64,000 bases of DNA from a virus: positions 32,001 to 96,000 of IMG/VR virus record IMGVR_UViG_3300014720_000003; one strand, 5' to 3'. The translations under genes were made by a program, and so were the position numbers. Of the stretch, positions 1 to 6,211 are shown piece by piece. How positions within the stretch are numbered: position 1 is the first letter of the stretch; each line of letters begins with the position of its first letter. The notes under the pieces were generated by a model. The model searched no databases. It was not told the DNA's origin and worked only from the letters and a program-made list of their open reading frames with translations.

Positions 1-173
1 ATTTGATGATCCGTTTCGATTCTGTCGCGTCGGTCACACTTAGCATCCAATTCGGCCAGCGTCACACCATCGGTGCGATTATCGCGGAAGTCCTCGGGCA
101 GCCAACTATTCGGCACCACGATGCAATCTTTGATAATCCGCTCAAACTCCGCCATCAGTTCGTAGCCGTTCAT
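1..173 (-). CDS. small early hypothetical protein (runs off window start)
   Basis: Hand-translated MNGYELMAEFERIIKDCIVVPNSWLPEDF...; GGAGG RBS 5' of ATG at 173; directly downstream of the promoter at 196-223. Confidence 0.7.
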   Translation of the reverse strand, partial: MNGYELMAEFERIIKDCIVVPNSWLPEDFRDNRTDGVTLAELDAKCDRRDRIETDHQ

Positions 174-195
174 GGTTTCCTCCGTTGTTGTATGG

Positions 196-223
196 ATTAT
201 ACAGATGGAAAAGGGCTTGTCAA
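196..223 (-). promoter_or_regulatory. sigma70-type promoter TTGACA-N16-TATAAT
   Basis: Perfect consensus hexamers on the minus strand, upstream of an RBS and ATG. Confidence 0.85.
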
Positions 224-239
224 CTCGACAAAAATCAGT

Positions 240-255
240 AGCAAATACTGTGCCA
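240..255 (-). promoter_or_regulatory. sigma54 (-24/-12)-like box TGGCAC-AGTAT-TTGCT
   Basis: Matches the RpoN consensus TGGCAC-N5-TTGCW. Confidence 0.55.
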
Positions 256-293
256 AAGTGGCAGGCCGGGCGCGCCACCCGCCATTATGGCAG
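251..293. repeat. tandem (T/C)GCCA-N3-TGGCA palindrome pair, 29-bp period
   Basis: tgccaaagtggca at 251 and cgccattatggca at 280, with a GC-rich spacer. Confidence 0.75.
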
Positions 294-304
294 ATGGTCT
301 TTTT

Positions 305-382
305 TTAGATTAGGGATAGAAAGTAGGTCATAACAATAAAACCCACCAGGAATCCCACAAATCTTACAATATTTTCAATCAT
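305..382 (-). CDS. 25-aa hydrophobic micropeptide
   Basis: MIENIVRFVGFLVGFIVMTYFLSLI; start overlaps the end of the upstream ORF. Confidence 0.5.
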   Translation of the reverse strand: MIENIVRFVGFLVGFIVMTYFLSLI

Positions 383-482
383 TATTTTCCCTCATTGGAA
401 AAACCAAATCAGAAACAAACCAACAACCAACAACACCAGCAACAAATCCCACACCTATTTGTACCCAGTTTATATCGGCCAT
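375..482 (-). CDS. 35-aa single-TM micropeptide
   Basis: MADINWVQIGVGFVAGVVGCWFVSDLVFPMRENND; purine-rich RBS (AAGGGG) upstream. Confidence 0.55.
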   Translation of the reverse strand: MADINWVQIGVGFVAGVVGCWFVSDLVFPMRENND

Positions 483-497
483 CCCTAGCCCCTTTCT

Positions 498-590
498 TTA
501 GTCTAAGATGTTTTCCACAAAGAATAATACGGTTTTGACCATAATAACCAGTATTAGAAAACCCACAACTCCAAATAATAGACCTATCAT
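498..590 (-). CDS. 30-aa hydrophobic micropeptide
   Basis: MIGLLFGVVGFLILVIMVKTVLFFVENILD; ATGA overlap with the stop of 587..898. Confidence 0.55.
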   Translation of the reverse strand: MIGLLFGVVGFLILVIMVKTVLFFVENILD

Positions 591-898
591 CCTTGCACCA
601 CCATATTTTCCATAAAAGGATATTCCTTGCCGTTGATTCTCACAAACCATTCGTACTTCCGCTGGTACACTCTCACCGGGCTATACTGGTTGATTCTATC
701 CTTAGTTGTGACCGTTTGCCATCCCCCCGTTTGCAGGGTATAGGTATTGTCGGGATGAATCTTCACAACATAGGTACTGTGCAGCATAATACCAACGCTA
801 TTATCATGCAGGATTTCAGCGTATGTATTATTACCAATCTTCCGCCGGCTCTTATTACGCTTGCCGCGAACCATGCTAACCGCTTCGTTGTAATTCAT
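587..898 (-). CDS. phage hypothetical protein (103 aa)
   Basis: Translationally coupled ORF; GGWQTVTTKDRIN motif of a type I associate with small phage early proteins. Confidence 0.75.
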   Translation of the reverse strand: MNYNEAVSMVRGKRNKSRRKIGNNTYAEILHDNSVGIMLHSTYVVKIHPDNTYTLQTGGWQTVTTKDRINQYSPVRVYQRKYEWFVRINGKEYPFMENMVVQG

Positions 899-987
899 CA
901 GAAAAGTTCCCCGTATCCGTGAAGGTAATCGTACACCCTAACACTCACACAATAACCTATCAAACCGAAAAACGCAAGAGCAATCAT
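898..987 (-). CDS. 29-aa hydrophobic micropeptide
   Basis: MIALAFFGLIGYCVSVRVYDYLHGYGELF; AAGGGA RBS; TGATG overlap with the next gene; first ORF after the promoter at 1014-1041. Confidence 0.55.
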   Translation of the reverse strand: MIALAFFGLIGYCVSVRVYDYLHGYGELF

Positions 988-1013
988 GCTTCGTTCCCTT
1001 GTTGTATATCGGT

Positions 1014-1041
1014 ATTCTACAGCCCAAAGTTTAGTTGTCAA
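1014..1041 (-). promoter_or_regulatory. sigma70-type promoter TTGACA-N16-TAGAAT
   Basis: Near-consensus hexamers with the same 16-bp spacer as the sibling promoters. Confidence 0.8.
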
Positions 1042-1057
1042 ACGGAGAAAATATTTT

Positions 1058-1100
1058 TGCCATTTTGGCAGATCGGGCGCGCCGCCTGCCATTTTGGCAG
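1058..1100. repeat. tandem TGCCATTTTGGCA palindrome pair, 29-bp period
   Basis: Copies at 1058 and 1087. Confidence 0.8.
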
Positions 1101-1147
1101 AGACCCCTCATTGGTGGGGGAGCGGCACCATACCCCTTAGTGGGGGG

Positions 1148-1522
1148 TTATTCCCCATCCCACCCAAAGGGGGAGACTTCCTCTCCACTGGCGAGAATCG
1201 CACCATACTGTTCGGCCAAGGCCGCTTTCCGCTCATCGCAACCGGGCTTGCCCACCTTGATAATCATCGTATCATCACCCCCCTTGTAGCGGGGGTCAAC
1301 CCTCTCAACCTTACGCTTGCCCACGCGACGTAACGCCTTGCGATTGAACTTGAGAACCTTTTCGGTCATCACCTTACGCTGTCGATCACCGACCCCGTAA
1401 ACATAGTCTACGCCGTCGATCACCCGATCATCGGAAACGTCGATAGCGTCGGGGATAGCGATTCCATAGAGCCAGTTGATGATAGCACGCTGAAAATCAC
1501 GCAGAATCGGACTAGTTGACAT
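1148..1522 (-). CDS. early hypothetical protein (124 aa)
   Basis: MSTSPILRDF...; GGAG RBS before ATG at 1522 favours this start over the longer ORF-track start. Confidence 0.7.
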   Translation of the reverse strand: MSTSPILRDFQRAIINWLYGIAIPDAIDVSDDRVIDGVDYVYGVGDRQRKVMTEKVLKFNRKALRRVGKRKVERVDPRYKGGDDTMIIKVGKPGCDERKAALAEQYGAILASGEEVSPFGWDGE

Positions 1523-1592
1523 GATGCTTTGCTCCAAAGGATTACTGACTGTACCAAAAAACTTTTTTGACCACAACCCCCATTCTGGGGGA

Positions 1593-1802
1593 CTACCATC
1601 CATTCTGTCGACAAGTCTCATCCCACGAATCCTGTTCACGACGCTGGCGGTCACTCATCGGCTCGTCACCCGGGCACCATTCATCTTTAGCAGCATCGTA
1701 GGCATCGTCGGAATAATCGTACGATCCAACTTCACAATGTTCGCCACAACGCGAGCAAATATCCTGAAACCGAACTTCCGCACCACAGCAATCACTCAGC
1801 AT
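1593..1802 (-). CDS. small Cys-rich (zinc-finger-like) early protein
   Basis: SDCCGA...CSRCGEHC; GGAG RBS; follows the promoter at 1840-1867. Confidence 0.7.
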   Translation of the reverse strand: MLSDCCGAEVRFQDICSRCGEHCEVGSYDYSDDAYDAAKDEWCPGDEPMSDRQRREQDSWDETCRQNGW

Positions 1803-1839
1803 TTTTCACTCTCCGTTTCTTTCTTTCTTTCTATATCGG

Positions 1840-1867
1840 ATTATACGGTCTGAAACTTGAAAAGCAA
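1840..1867 (-). promoter_or_regulatory. sigma70-type promoter TTGCTT-N16-TATAAT
   Basis: Repeated promoter family. Confidence 0.75.
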
Positions 1868-1899
1868 ACCGAAAAAAATCGGGAGAGAAAAATATTTTG

Positions 1900-1941
1900 T
1901 GGCACAATATTTGCTGGCGCGATTTTGGTACAAGATTTGCT
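1900..1941 (+). promoter_or_regulatory. two sigma54-like boxes (TGGCAC-AATAT-TTGCT; TGGTAC-AAGAT-TTGCT)
   Basis: At 1900-1915 and 1926-1941; GG-N10-GC spacing intact. Confidence 0.55.
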
Positions 1942-1944
1942 AGC

Positions 1945-2088
1945 CTGCCATTTTGGCAGTTCGCGCGGCCGATCTGCCATTTTGGCAGTCTGGCTGACTG
2001 TCATTATGGCAGCCAGCCGATAGGATCGGCTAGAACACCCCCCTAGAGGGGTAGAGCCCCACCCCCCCCTATTGGTGGGGATACCCCC
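1945..2088. repeat. ~140-bp palindrome-rich direct repeat, copy 1
   Basis: Near-identical to 2786-2925; the first ~43 bp recur at 3605-3647. Confidence 0.9.
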
Positions 2089-2103
2089 ACGTACATTTGT
2101 TCA

Positions 2104-2301
2104 CTACTTAGCGTGAATGAACACCCGTTCACTCACCGTACGAGCGGTCAACGTAATGATCCAGTTATTACCGCTACCATCCTCCCGCACGATTCCGTTC
2201 ACCAATCCACAGTGAGCCTTACCCTTGGGATCAATCACTCCAACATACTTACCAGTTCGCATAGCGGAAAAAATCTTATCAAGGTTATTTGTGTTCATCA
2301 T
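2104..2301 (-). CDS. small early hypothetical protein (65 aa)
   Basis: AAGGA RBS; second gene of a cassette. Confidence 0.7.
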   Translation of the reverse strand: MMNTNNLDKIFSAMRTGKYVGVIDPKGKAHCGLVNGIVREDGSGNNWIITLTARTVSERVFIHAK

Positions 2302-2365
2302 TCTTTATTCCTTCACGGGTAGTCCCCCAACGGGGGGAGGGTTGGTCCTTCCATCCATCGGGGGG

Positions 2366-2632
2366 TCAACCCGCCCCGACACTCTCCAGCATATCGCGGC
2401 GGGTCTTACCCTCGGGCCAGTATTCGGTGACGATGCACGTGTAGTGGTGCATGTTCTCCATGTAGAACGTCTTATACTCGGTCGTGCCGTTGGGGCCGAC
2501 ACTGTGGAGAACAACCCGACGACCCTTGGGGCCGTCGACCACACTCTCCACCACGCCGACGAACAGCCGATCATCACTCTTGCGAAAGCCACAGAACGCA
2601 CGACCAACAACCACGTTATCCATTTTCATCAT
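2366..2632 (-). CDS. small early protein, paralogue family A
   Basis: VGRAFCGFRKSDDRLFVGVVESV..PKG...YKTFYMENM aligns with 3750..4031. Confidence 0.8.
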   Translation of the reverse strand: MMKMDNVVVGRAFCGFRKSDDRLFVGVVESVVDGPKGRRVVLHSVGPNGTTEYKTFYMENMHHYTCIVTEYWPEGKTRRDMLESVGAG

Positions 2633-2666
2633 CCTTCAACTAGGGGTTATCTTCAACTCTGCCACG

Positions 2667-2694
2667 ATTATACAGTAGAGTATCGGTAAAGCAA
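2667..2694 (-). promoter_or_regulatory. sigma70-type promoter TTGCTT-N16-TATAAT
   Basis: Repeated promoter family. Confidence 0.75.
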
Positions 2695-2727
2695 ACGGAA
2701 AAAAATAGAGGAAATATTTTTGCGATT

Positions 2728-2781
2728 TGGCACAGGATTTGCTGTTGCCAATTTGGCAGGGATTTTGGCATGATATTTGCT
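2728..2781 (+). promoter_or_regulatory. two sigma54-like boxes (TGGCAC-AGGAT-TTGCT; TGGCAT-GATAT-TTGCT)
   Basis: At 2728-2743 and 2766-2781. Confidence 0.55.
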
Positions 2782-2785
2782 GCAT

Positions 2786-2925
2786 CTGCCATTTTGGCAG
2801 TTCGCGCGGCCGATCTGCCATTTTGGCAGCTTGGCTGACTGTCATTATGGCAGCCGATAGGATCGGCTGATACACCCCCCCTGAGAGGGGTAGAGCCCCA
2901 CCCCCCTATTGGTGGGGATACCCCC
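2786..2925. repeat. ~140-bp palindrome-rich direct repeat, copy 2
   Basis: Near-identical to 1945-2088. Confidence 0.9.
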
Positions 2926-2939
2926 CTCGGTGGGGGCCA

Positions 2940-3137
2940 CTATTTGGTGGGGGTAGTTCCTATCCTCAACCCCTCCCCCCTTTCCAGTCTCCTGACTAGA
3001 TAATCGTAGTCGTCCGTTCTGAACAATTGAACACCATCGGTATTTTTCACGAGCCATTCCCGACAATGCCCGGTCCAACGGCTGTCGATTTGCAGATTGT
3101 GACGATTTGCGAGGATTTGTAGCGTAGCGTTGGTCAT
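2940..3137 (-). CDS. small early hypothetical protein (65 aa)
   Basis: MTNATLQILANRHN...; AAGGA RBS before ATG at 3137. Confidence 0.65.
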   Translation of the reverse strand: MTNATLQILANRHNLQIDSRWTGHCREWLVKNTDGVQLFRTDDYDYLVRRLERGEGLRIGTTPTK

Positions 3138-3204
3138 GATTTTTTCCTTAGGGGTTAGTCCCCCAACGGGGGGAGAGTATGATTGTTCCCGCCGTTGTCC
3201 AGAA

Positions 3205-3426
3205 TCACGAGATATCGACATTCCAGTATTCTACGTTGTCGCACTCGTCGAGATAGAGCGTAGCATACTTAGTCTGCTTCCACTCCCGATCCCAGTTTGC
3301 GACCACGATCATGATGCCACGATCACCCATGTCGCGGACCTTTTCGATCCATCCGTCGAAATACTTGCCGTCGCGGCGACGAGTGGCGAAAAACTGCTGG
3401 AGGGGCTTCGGGGTATCGGCAATCAT
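3205..3426 (-). CDS. small early protein, divergent member of paralogue family A
   Basis: MIADTPK...RRRDGKYFDGWIEKV...KYATLYLDEC resembles RNDGRYFVGIVESV...YKSFYLE; start taken downstream of the promoter. Confidence 0.65.
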   Translation of the reverse strand: MIADTPKPLQQFFATRRRDGKYFDGWIEKVRDMGDRGIMIVVANWDREWKQTKYATLYLDECDNVEYWNVDIS

Positions 3427-3472
3427 GTTTCTATCTTTCTCTGCTAGGGGTTTCATTCTCAACTCTGCCATT

Positions 3473-3500
3473 GTTATATCATCTAGTATCGGCAAATCAA
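3473..3500 (-). promoter_or_regulatory. sigma70-type promoter TTGATT-N16-TATAAC
   Basis: Repeated promoter family with conserved flanks. Confidence 0.7.
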
Positions 3501-3533
3501 ACGGAAAAAAACAGCGGAAATATTTTTGCGATT

Positions 3534-3683
3534 TGGCATGATATTTGCTAGGGCAAAAACTGTGCCGAAAAAATTTTTGCGATTTGGCATGATATTTGCT
3601 GCATCTGCCATTTTGGCAGTTCGCGCGGCCGATCTGCCATTTTGGCATGTGTCTGCCATTTGTTGTATGGCACAACATTTGCT
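3534..3683 (+). promoter_or_regulatory. cluster of sigma54-like boxes and a palindrome pair
   Basis: Boxes at 3534-3549, 3585-3600 and 3668-3683 (+), with a CGGCAC-N5-TTGCC variant at 3552-3567 (-); palindromes at 3606 and 3635. Confidence 0.55.
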
Positions 3684-3749
3684 ACTGCCGTTATGGCAGT
3701 TTTCTAGCCTGCCAGTTTGGCAGATACAATATCTCCCCCGATGGGGGGT

Positions 3750-4031
3750 TCAAGCCCCCGCGGTTTCCGCGAGCAACCGGGCAACATACTGATCCCGCGT
3801 CAAGCCCGCGGGCCAATGCTTCGTTTCATTGCATGAATAGATATCCATCGTTTCAAGATAGAATGATTTGTAGATCGTCTTGACCTCTCCGTTGACCACA
3901 CTCTCGGCCGTATGCAGCACTATCAGCGTACCCTTGGGGGTAGACTTTACACTCTCCACGATTCCGACGAAATATCGACCATCGTTCCGAAAGCCCGAAA
4001 AAGCGTATCCAACCTTTACTGTATCCATCAT
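3750..4031 (-). CDS. small early protein, paralogue family A
   Basis: Clear alignment to 2366..2632; GGAG RBS. Confidence 0.8.
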   Translation of the reverse strand: MMDTVKVGYAFSGFRNDGRYFVGIVESVKSTPKGTLIVLHTAESVVNGEVKTIYKSFYLETMDIYSCNETKHWPAGLTRDQYVARLLAETAGA

Positions 4032-4067
4032 TCATTCTCCGTTGAGATATCTTCCGAACTACACCCT

Positions 4068-4095
4068 ATTCTACAGCATAGTATCGGCAAAGCAA
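4068..4095 (-). promoter_or_regulatory. sigma70-type promoter TTGCTT-N16-TAGAAT
   Basis: Repeated promoter family. Confidence 0.7.
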
Positions 4096-4148
4096 ACGGA
4101 AAAAAACAGCCGAAATATAGGTGGGGAAAACTTCATCATTCGATTATT

Positions 4149-4164
4149 TGGTATGATATTTGCA
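4149..4164 (+). promoter_or_regulatory. sigma54-like box TGGTAT-GATAT-TTGCA
   Basis: GG-N10-GC spacing; similar position relative to the sigma70 promoter as in the other cassettes. Confidence 0.45.
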
Positions 4165-4224
4165 TGGTGGGGGTTTGCACTGATCCCCCCGATAGGGGGG
4201 TGGGGGCATGGCAGGGGGTACGCT

Positions 4225-4252
4225 CCCCCGATAGGGGGGTTTTTCTGTTTTC
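4225..4252 (+). terminator. possible intrinsic terminator
   Basis: CCCCC-GATA-GGGGG hairpin followed by GTTTTTCTGTTTT; a twin hairpin lies at 4185-4200. Confidence 0.45.
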
Positions 4253-4362
4253 TAAAGGACTGTGCGTTTTTTGCGACAAAATCGCCGGGTGGTCCAAACA
4301 CAATTCGACCACCATAAAAAAATTAGCCAGTTTCTTTTTTATCTGCTTGGCTACTATAAGAT

Positions 4363-5187
4363 ATGAGAACCTACCAGACTCGATGTTTCAATCTTCTACG
4401 ATCACAAGAAAGATCGTATCGTCAAAATGTGTTGCTTGATACTATAGAATCTTTTCAAGCTAATTATAACCATTATAAAGCTCAAGCCTCACACAATTTA
4501 AACACATGGTTATCACTATACCAACCACAACCCCCCATAGTTGATGTTGTATCTATGGATTGGGGTGATGCTACATTATTATTTACTAAAAAATATGCTC
4601 ACACATTCTGCGTACTTAATATGGCCAACCCCACCTATCCTGGCGGTGGTTACTTATACAATTGTGTTGCTCAAGAAGAAAATATGTTTCGACGATCAGA
4701 TTGTTTTTTTAGTATCACAGACAATCTACTAGATTCTGAATTATACTCATATAATACTAATTTTAGCAATTTATTACAAGCTCACAATAATCTTGTTTAT
4801 CTAGACACCAACCCCCGACTCTGCATAAAAAGTGGTGAACAATCTCAATACAAACTATTGGATAATAGTAATATATTCTCTTTCTTGGAATTACGAGCAT
4901 CCGCCCAAGATTTGAGAAATGGAAACTCTTTGAATATCGATAACGCTGTTCACAGAATAGAAGCTCAATTTGATACTCTTTTACAACACAATATACAACA
5001 CGTAATATTTAGCGCTTTTGGTTGTGGTGCTTTTAATAATCCCCCAAAAACTATTGCTAATATATATAAACAACAAATACTCAACTATAAAAAATACTTT
5101 AAAGCTATAGTATTCGCTATATACTATCCTGGCTATGGTCCCGACAATTATACCACATTTAGCAAAGTGTTACTCGCTAATAGCTGA
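4363..5187 (+). CDS. bacterial-type poly(ADP-ribose) glycohydrolase (DUF2263/TIGR02452 macrodomain)
   Basis: LNMAN..PGGG-x7-QEE PARG catalytic loop and AFGCGAF.NPP motif. Confidence 0.85.
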   Translation: MRTYQTRCFNLLRSQERSYRQNVLLDTIESFQANYNHYKAQASHNLNTWLSLYQPQPPIVDVVSMDWGDATLLFTKKYAHTFCVLNMANPTYPGGGYLYNCVAQEENMFRRSDCFFSITDNLLDSELYSYNTNFSNLLQAHNNLVYLDTNPRLCIKSGEQSQYKLLDNSNIFSFLELRASAQDLRNGNSLNIDNAVHRIEAQFDTLLQHNIQHVIFSAFGCGAFNNPPKTIANIYKQQILNYKKYFKAIVFAIYYPGYGPDNYTTFSKVLLANS

Positions 5188-5379
5188 AGAATTCTTTTTT
5201 CTACGACCTCTTGGTTTGCTAACACCAATCTTACGACGCTGACGACGAACCATACCATAAGTCACAGTTTCGCTAGTCATTTCGCTTAATTTAGCGGCTA
5301 ATTCAACATCGCTAAAAGATCCTAGATTATTACGAATAAAATCGATTTCAGCATCTGTCCATTTTTTATATGTGGCCAT
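5170..5379 (-). CDS. small HTH DNA-binding protein
   Basis: KWTDAEIDFIR...ELAAKL...VRRQRRKIG pattern; GAAAGG RBS before ATG at 5379. Confidence 0.7.
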   Translation of the reverse strand: MATYKKWTDAEIDFIRNNLGSFSDVELAAKLSEMTSETVTYGMVRRQRRKIGVSKPRGRRKKNSSAISE

Positions 5380-5460: not shown

Positions 5461-5622
5461 ATGCATATTGACAATATTACCCCACTAATCTTACACGTAA
5501 CCGCTAAAGATAATGTTTCAGTGGACCAAGACCTTAATAGTATTCAAAATAAATCACTAGTGGAACTAATAAATGACGAAGAAAAAAAGAACCAAGAAAA
5601 CGAAGACAATATCGGTGGATGA
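5461..5622 (+). CDS. 53-aa hypothetical protein
   Basis: Hand-found ORF MHIDNITPLILHVTAK... with GAGG RBS; overlaps the next gene. Confidence 0.45.
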   Translation: MHIDNITPLILHVTAKDNVSVDQDLNSIQNKSLVELINDEEKKNQENEDNIGG

Positions 5623-6211
5623 AAATGAGTTTCTTAAAATTGTTGATATTATATCAAAGAAATTAGCGTATAAATTTAAATTTGGATACCATGACTACAA
5701 CGATATGAAACAGCAAATCAGCATATTTGCACTAGAAGGACTAAAAAATTATGATCACAAAAGACCCCTAGAAAACTTTCTATGGACCCACGTTAGAAAT
5801 CGATTGTTTAATTACAAACGAGACAACTATCAACGCCCAGACAAACCCTGCTTAACATGTCCACTATATGACAAAGGATGCAAACAAAGTGCTAGTGGTT
5901 GTTTAGAATATTCCAATAAAAATGATTGCGAACTATATAGTAGTTGGTTGGATCGTAATAGTACCAAAAAAAACCTTATGTATCTTAATACTATAGACGA
6001 GGTTAAAAATTATGGATCAGCATTTGTAAGTAATGATGATTCTTTTATGAATCAAATTAGCACATCAGAAATTATAAAACTCATAGATCAACATTTGGTG
6101 GGCGAAGAACGAACCATTTACCTAAAGTTAAAAGCCGGATCCAAAATACCCAAAGCTGATATGACTAAACTTAGCATCAAACTTAAAGAGATTATTAAAA
6201 ATCATGGCTAA
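5573..6211 (+). CDS. phage-encoded sigma70-family (ECF-like) sigma factor
   Basis: Region-2-like DMKQQ....ALEGL..YD..R.LENFL...VRNRLFNYKRD, a Cys-rich insert and a short region-4-like C-terminus; sits at the head of the late module. Confidence 0.7.
   Translation: MTKKKRTKKTKTISVDENEFLKIVDIISKKLAYKFKFGYHDYNDMKQQISIFALEGLKNYDHKRPLENFLWTHVRNRLFNYKRDNYQRPDKPCLTCPLYDKGCKQSASGCLEYSNKNDCELYSSWLDRNSTKKNLMYLNTIDEVKNYGSAFVSNDDSFMNQISTSEIIKLIDQHLVGEERTIYLKLKAGSKIPKADMTKLSIKLKEIIKNHG

Follow-up and report, generated by a model that had tools for sequence, protein, structure and literature searches.

Virus record IMGVR_UViG_3300014720_000003, from an uncultured lake phage, carries, at the head of its early gene block, an array of short bipartite boxes that match the −24/−12 consensus of sigma-54 (RpoN) promoters. 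Based on their sequence and arrangement, we tentatively interpret these boxes, with a probability of about 0.4, as high-affinity docking sites on which host sigma-54 polymerase or free sigma-54 would be parked by default. The window analyzed (64,000 bp, bases 32,001 to 96,000 of the 138,480-bp record) contains nine exact TGGYAY-N5-TTGCW boxes at positions 240 to 4164, compared to 0.37 expected, and none of 100 shuffles reached nine. The whole 138-kb genome has 11, of which 10 fall inside a 6-kb segment (genome 30,093 to 36,164) and the other lies at 124,856. An initial annotation, made from the letters of the window alone, had placed the nine boxes at 240 (minus strand), 1900, 1926, 2728, 2766, 3534, 3585, 3668, and 4149 and regarded them as packed into the early region; positions, strands, and enrichment all held. 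The variant box that it listed at 3552 (minus) is also real, being recovered at 3553 to 3566 by the relaxed pattern GGYAY-N5-TTGC, which finds 10 sites in the 64 kb, all inside 241 to 4163, compared to 1.36 expected.

Sigma-54 polymerase needs an ATP-driven activator to open DNA, and to our knowledge sigma-54 stands alone among bacterial sigma factors in binding DNA stably without transcription. The boxes agree with its consensus at 11 of 11 defined positions, with GG and GC 10 bp apart, as the initial annotation had recognized. Its further statement that the holoenzyme binds in an inactive state is also made by Bonocora et al. 2015 (PMC4591121). By our own count, only 10 of the 42 intergenic-sense sites of Escherichia coli sigma-54 identified by chromatin immunoprecipitation sequencing in Table 1 of that paper fit the strict box pattern. 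The best E. coli site in the same table, hypA (CTGGCACAATTATTGCT), is nearly identical to the phage boxes, which share the bipartite −24/−12 form of the RpoN promoters described there (hypA, glnA, pspA, rtcB) and equal the best-scoring sites.

Arrangement of the boxes and conservation in relatives

Eight of the nine exact boxes are oriented away from the early genes, as first noted, because these genes and their sigma-70 promoters lie on the minus strand. Being mostly backward, the boxes look like parking or counter-promoter sites, not ordinary promoters. The sole co-directional box, TGGCACAGTATTTGCT (240 to 255, minus), is also the only one with a sense gene downstream, the others facing palindromes, hairpins, or a terminator. 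Its TGGCA forms the right half of a palindrome and its end lies 16 bp before a −35 TTGACA, a layout that recurs in loci L026 and L027. On the plus strand, two tandem boxes (1900 to 1915 and 1926 to 1941) stand 26 bp apart from start to start, the former beginning 32 bp beyond a −35 hexamer and the latter ending 4 bp before a palindrome. Two further boxes at 2728 to 2743 and 2766 to 2781 are 38 bp apart with the mini-palindrome TGCCAATTTGGCA in between. The group at 3534 to 3600 consists of a box at 3534 to 3549 (plus), the convergent variant CGGCAC-N5-TTGCC at 3552 to 3567 (minus), and a box at 3585 to 3600 (plus), and is followed by a box lying between two palindromes (3668 to 3683, plus). 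The terminal box, TGGTATGATATTTGCA (4149 to 4164, plus), faces the late genes.

Beyond the −35 hexamer, 32 to 33 bp precede the first box of a cassette (33 bp, measured by eye, in the 3534 group), and 53 bp lie between the last −35 and the terminal box, in line with the 33 to 54 bp estimated initially. A typical cassette reads, along the early strand, terminator hairpins, two CTGCCA-N3-TGGCAG palindromes 29 bp apart, and a sigma-70 promoter. Cassettes that lie nearest the early/late divergence point hold, in addition, one or two backward boxes, placed after the palindromes and ahead of an A/T-rich stretch, giving a module of sigma-70 promoter, 32-bp A/T-rich spacer, one or two backward boxes, and palindrome pair.

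This design is conserved. A scan for the palindromes returned at least 119 viral stretches, with some 30 true relatives carrying paired sites among the matches listed, and in these relatives boxes and paired palindromes co-occur. Across 31 related loci (307 kb) there were 90 distinct exact boxes, compared to 0.8 in shuffles. One-mismatch sites numbered 62 against about 33 expected, close to background, indicating that nearly all real sites are perfect and that decayed copies are rare. The spacing is equally strict, with 90 distinct sites for N5 and one to four for every other spacing from N0 to N12. The two half elements are different and non-interchangeable: the swapped forms TTGYAY-N5-TTGCW and TGGYAY-N5-TGGCW occur zero and four times, respectively, compared to 90 for the true form. 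The initial annotation had described an invariant spacing around a varying N5. The spacing stands; N5 is not free but prefers R-A-N-A-T, and TT precedes TGG, the logo from 26 family loci (118 box instances, 91 distinct contexts) being TT-TGGCAY-R-A-N-A-T-TTGCT.

The register to the neighboring elements was measured on 90 distinct boxes from 20 family loci. Twenty-seven start 31 to 33 bp beyond a divergent −35 hexamer, 37 end 4 to 6 bp before a palindrome, and five are terminal boxes 52 to 53 bp from the −35; in three, including that at 240, TGGCA also belongs to a palindrome and 16 bp separate the box end from a −35 on the same strand. Boxes in this family are spaced 26 to 28, 37 to 38, or 51 to 52 bp apart, and a hairpin plus T run follows the terminal boxes in the relatives too. 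In 17 of them the order is the same: box cassettes, terminal box, a small helix-turn-helix (HTH) gene on the early strand, a sigma-factor gene, a 269-amino-acid (aa) gene, and terminase.

Box arrays in other viral lineages

Two boxes within 5 to 35 bp of each other occur in at least 120 viral stretches, compared to five for the same pattern reversed, used as a control. Among the matches listed, 117 were new loci, none with the family palindrome; their GC content ranges from 31 to 64%, and 89 of them hold at least three boxes. Together with 32 family loci they fall into 62 blastn groups, and only four new loci join the family of the present phage. The remaining 113 non-family loci among the matches listed (0.98 Mb) were compared with the proteins of the phage. 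Nine early proteins gave one marginal match (E = 0.002), the terminase large subunit (TerL) two weak ones, and the HTH protein, the poly(ADP-ribose) glycohydrolase (PARG) described below, and the 269-aa protein none. The phage sigma factor, considered as a common reader, was rejected since by tblastn and profile it has a homologue in only one of these 113 listed loci. With no tested phage protein generally common to the box loci, the shared reader is most simply a host factor, and the recurrence of the motif across lineages favors a conserved one, putatively sigma-54.

The geometry of the arrays is regular. Same-strand pairs peak at 25 to 29 bp (88 pairs, with only three pairs closer), convergent pairs at 21 bp (recurring at 18 to 21 bp), and divergent pairs at 26 bp, a packing as would be expected for a bulky reader. 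A broader proposal, which we consider doubtful, is that arrays of perfect sigma-54 sites serve many unrelated phages as a cis-acting element of takeover, which would capture the host's enhancer-dependent polymerase or free sigma-54. Such arrays could disarm sigma-54-dependent stress responses or fix polymerase-DNA complexes at early-gene boundaries; in the present lake-phage family, the element would additionally be wired to the sigma-70 early promoters.

Individual arrays vary in size and setting. Other viral contigs hold 5 to 22 sigma-54-type boxes in tandem or mirror arrays (L134, 17 to 256; L162, 8236 to 8447; L225, 4810 to 4928; and L204), and in a 41-member podovirus-like group some 1.2 kb separate the array from the genes for terminase and portal. 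In the unrelated contig L243 (6264 to 6800), very long C runs and G runs directly follow the boxes. An array from another lineage found no match in the phage genome collection.

Proposed parking of sigma-54 and rival explanations

The boxes, as proposed docking sites, belong to the control modules of those early cassettes that lie closest to the divergence point. By default, a closed sigma-54 complex would be parked back to back with the sigma-70 polymerase, where it could hold host sigma-54 and tune or insulate the adjoining early promoter. Parking is the default reading because no phage activator and no upstream enhancer were found. Genes for a sigma-54 DNA-binding domain or an activator were not detected in this phage or in five relatives (one of them a complete 224-kb record), a single AAA+ match appearing RuvB-like by eye, and the palindromes lie 4 to 6 bp downstream of the boxes, at the predicted start site, not 80 to 150 bp upstream. 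In these respects, and in having no sense gene downstream of 9 of the 10 sites, in their tandem or convergent placement, and in being locked to a sigma-70 promoter and a palindrome, the phage boxes differ from bacterial sigma-54 promoters. Any transcript started would oppose the early genes and end in palindromes, hairpins, or the plus-strand terminator. A short RNA from the terminal box is possible, given the intrinsic terminator that follows it; the predicted RNA folds no better than shuffles (z = 0.20), and a search of window positions 1 to 4400 for known RNA families yielded one sub-threshold microRNA match only.

A close bacterial counterpart is the set of inactive intragenic and antisense sigma-54 sites of E. 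coli, described in PMC4591121 as bound without transcription and of unknown function. Like them, the phage motifs have no productive downstream gene. They differ in being perfect, clustered, placed between genes, and held in a conserved register, whereas those of E. coli are reported as scattered, mostly intragenic, and often imperfect. The same paper also cites the occlusion of promoters by sigma-54 sites overlapping them.

Several results weigh against parking. According to PMC4591121, the intragenic E. coli sites exert no roadblock effect, so that the roadblock suggested in the initial annotation is weakened and not favored as a sub-function; of its further suggestions, the boxes may act as a decoy for host sigma-54 polymerase or as an anchor in DNA entry. 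Only in this family do boxes keep a fixed register to sigma-70 promoters, which is absent in the other lineages. A hairpin plus T run lies downstream of 28 of 112 family boxes, compared to 2 upstream and 5 on the opposite strand, which hints that the boxes do fire. Boxes and palindromes have TTTGGCA in common, and the conserved early HTH protein could read either. The composite box-plus-palindrome pattern had one match among bacterial genome contigs, in bin G001 (which holds locus L123), and this bin is without sigma-54 and without a true activator; sigma-54 was above the cut-off in none of 31 genomes, i.e., the bin and its relatives. G001 is the metagenome-assembled representative of a GTDB species (1.8 Mb, carrying rpoB; relatives, 0.5 to 1.2 Mb), but it also holds a 141-kb phage contig related to the present phage and at least five different terminase genes (contigs C90, C118, C142, C145, and C103). 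It appears inflated by phage contigs and was rejected as host evidence, its mixed content making the absence of sigma-54 there weak evidence on the host. Host searches with the phage itself were uninformative: the phage genome collection gave no DNA match and none for a 494-aa open reading frame (ORF), psbA was not found in the phage, and DnaE, DnaB, and TerL match phages of many hosts at 21 to 34% identity.

The hairpin enrichment and the family-specific register count against pure parking and leave room for other explanations. The boxes could be working activator-dependent sigma-54 promoters, fired by a host activator or an unrecognized phage factor, whose short or antisense RNAs collide or pair with early transcripts as a host-state or timing switch, that at 240 serving as a second, sense promoter. 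Their sequence is of promoter quality, and in most relatives, as here, a strong plus-strand terminator stands after the terminal box and before the HTH and sigma genes. Host sigma-54 is moreover used by Pseudomonas phage YuA, which depends on it according to PMC5053324 and PMC10914365 and whose record, NC_010116, annotates three active −24/−12 promoters. These, however, are sense, lie ahead of late structural genes, and do not fit the strict box pattern even with one mismatch, whereas the present sites are early, backward, and arrayed. We judge working promoters unlikely. A host activator could make up for the missing phage one, but the palindromes are misplaced for an enhancer, tandem boxes 26 bp apart and convergent pairs at 18 to 21 bp would make poor promoters, and many of the 28 terminator-like matches are the palindromes themselves. 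Non-family boxes have no terminator enrichment at all (11 of 450, compared to 13 and 7). The initial annotation knew of no such arrays in phages, and we likewise found no paper on backward or tandem sigma-54 box arrays in phages in the literature searched, where one paper offers only a weak prediction of a sigma-54-like protein in a Pectobacterium phage; sigma-54 use as such has a precedent in YuA.

A non-sigma-54 reader, i.e., a phage protein such as the 69-aa HTH protein with its RGR tail or a palindrome binder, is possible though still somewhat improbable. The resemblance to sigma-54 sites would then be convergence or mimicry, possibly in a host devoid of rpoN. One box coincides in part with half of a palindrome, the rigid register resembles that of activator or architectural sites, and a conserved early three-helix protein adjoins the terminal box in the 17 relatives, although its fold matches are weak (E ≥ 0.3). 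On the other hand, agreement at all 11 positions together with the correct spacing is unlikely to arise by chance, and the box halves are not swapped. All 117 other loci among the matches listed have boxes and no palindromes, six family loci have palindromes and no boxes, and the HTH protein lacks a homologue in the 113 listed non-family loci. Very improbable, finally, is that the boxes have no reader and are passed on as components of a repeated cassette seam, with duplication and recombination maintaining them in the manner of the promoter-early stem-loops (PeSLs), by which, according to Arbiol et al. 2010 (PMC2839356), genes are shuffled in phages of the T4 type. The island is indeed built of repeated promoter-terminator cassettes. 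The PeSL design, in which a stem-loop and a strong sigma-70-like early promoter recur together between small accessory genes, is present here as 18 minus-strand promoters matching TTGACA-N16/17-TATAAT at 11 to 12 of 12 positions and as repeated hairpins. The cassettes add sigma-54 boxes and paired palindromes, unmentioned for PeSLs in the abstract of that paper. Against seams without a reader stand the constancy of the 11 defined positions next to a variable N5 and variable flanks, the rarity of decayed copies, and the recurrence of the same bipartite motif in phage groups unrelated at the DNA level.

Parked sigma-54 is the explanation we prefer among these. Most sigma-54 binding sites, those of E. 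coli included, still await a function, and perfect, clustered, register-conserved, and recurrent sites offer a clean natural setting in which to study how a parked sigma-54 polymerase acts. Should phages titrate or reuse sigma-54, the boxes would represent a new route of host takeover via DNA sequence instead of a phage protein; should such a protein prove to be the reader, they would be a striking case of motif mimicry.

Genomic surroundings and neighboring genes

The record has a 123-bp terminal repeat that looks like an assembly overlap. Its GC content is about 34% genome-wide except for a 14-kb island at 41 to 51% (genome 22,000 to 36,200; L001 2000 to 16200; window up to about 4,300), which contains about 25 small minus-strand genes and seven tRNA genes (Lys-UUU, Ser-ACU, Asn-GUU, Gln-UUG, Thr-UGU, Arg-UCU, and Glu-UUC), most of them reading A-ending codons. 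The early genes of the island may be tuned to a higher-GC host until the phage tRNAs are made. From genome 36 kb, minus-strand genes run leftwards and plus-strand late genes (terminase, tape measure) rightwards, which places the boxes where the early block begins, next to the early/late divergence point. The junction from GC-rich to AT-rich DNA after the terminal box is also present in four relatives, and the island is for this reason not an assembly chimera. N4-like hairpin promoters were considered and rejected, the 3949-aa ORF being a tape measure protein.

The early promoters next to the boxes, all on the minus strand, are TTGACA-N16-TATAAT at 196 to 223, TTGACA-N16-TAGAAT at 1014 to 1041 (a cassette with palindromes and without a box), TTGCTT-N16-TATAAT at 1840 to 1867 (with an A/T-rich stretch upstream) and at 2667 to 2694, a weaker TTGATT-N16-TATAAC at 3473 to 3500 (read by eye, repeat family D2), and TTGCTT-N16-TAGAAT at 4068 to 4095, in the cassette closest to the divergence point. 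Three operator-like palindromes CTGCCA-N3-TGGCAG lie at 1946 to 2011, 29 and 24 bp apart, and similar groups at 251 to 293, 1058 to 1099, 2787 to 2852, and 3606 to 3722. Downstream of the terminal box, an intrinsic terminator on the plus strand is formed by GCTCCCCCGATAGGGGGGT and then TTTTTCTGTTT (4222 to 4250; L001 16222 to 16240). Hairpins of the CCCC...GGGG type, made of C and G runs, follow the early genes at 2014 to 2090, 2851 to 2952, 3735 to 3750, and 4186 to 4240; most are without a T tail on the early strand and may therefore represent an unusual terminator type.

The first early-strand gene (5173 to 5379, minus) encodes the 69-aa three-helix HTH protein (MATYKKW...GMVRRQRRK...KPRGRRKK), whose basic RGR tail is AT-hook-like. 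Its structural model (mean pLDDT, 79.5) has three predicted helices and resembles, at the weak scores given above, the DNA-binding domain of GcrA, small-terminase, and Myb DNA-binding domains; a sequence search of the PDB gave no match. The protein would be a fair candidate for binding the palindromes, and a poorer one for the boxes. The HTH gene and the terminal box flank a gene for a microbial-type PARG (4363 to 5187, plus), which had no tblastn match in any of the 35 family loci searched and hence looks like an insertion specific to this phage. The phage sigma-70-family factor is encoded at 5573 to 6211, on the same strand as most boxes.

The box-bearing cassettes themselves code for paralogous small proteins of 65 to 93 aa (2366 to 2632, 3205 to 3426, and 3750 to 4031, minus, and perhaps 2104 to 2301). 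They have no family match in Pfam or PHROGs, and their tblastn matches overlap at the same places in the relatives, among which the gene content of the cassettes differs. Farther into the early block, the minus-strand gene at 587 to 898 encodes an early protein of the Kyano_Gp96/phrog_554 family. Phages of Synechococcus, Pseudomonas, Burkholderia, and Caulobacter have homologues in their early regions, and one such homologue is annotated in its record as a putative transcription regulator.

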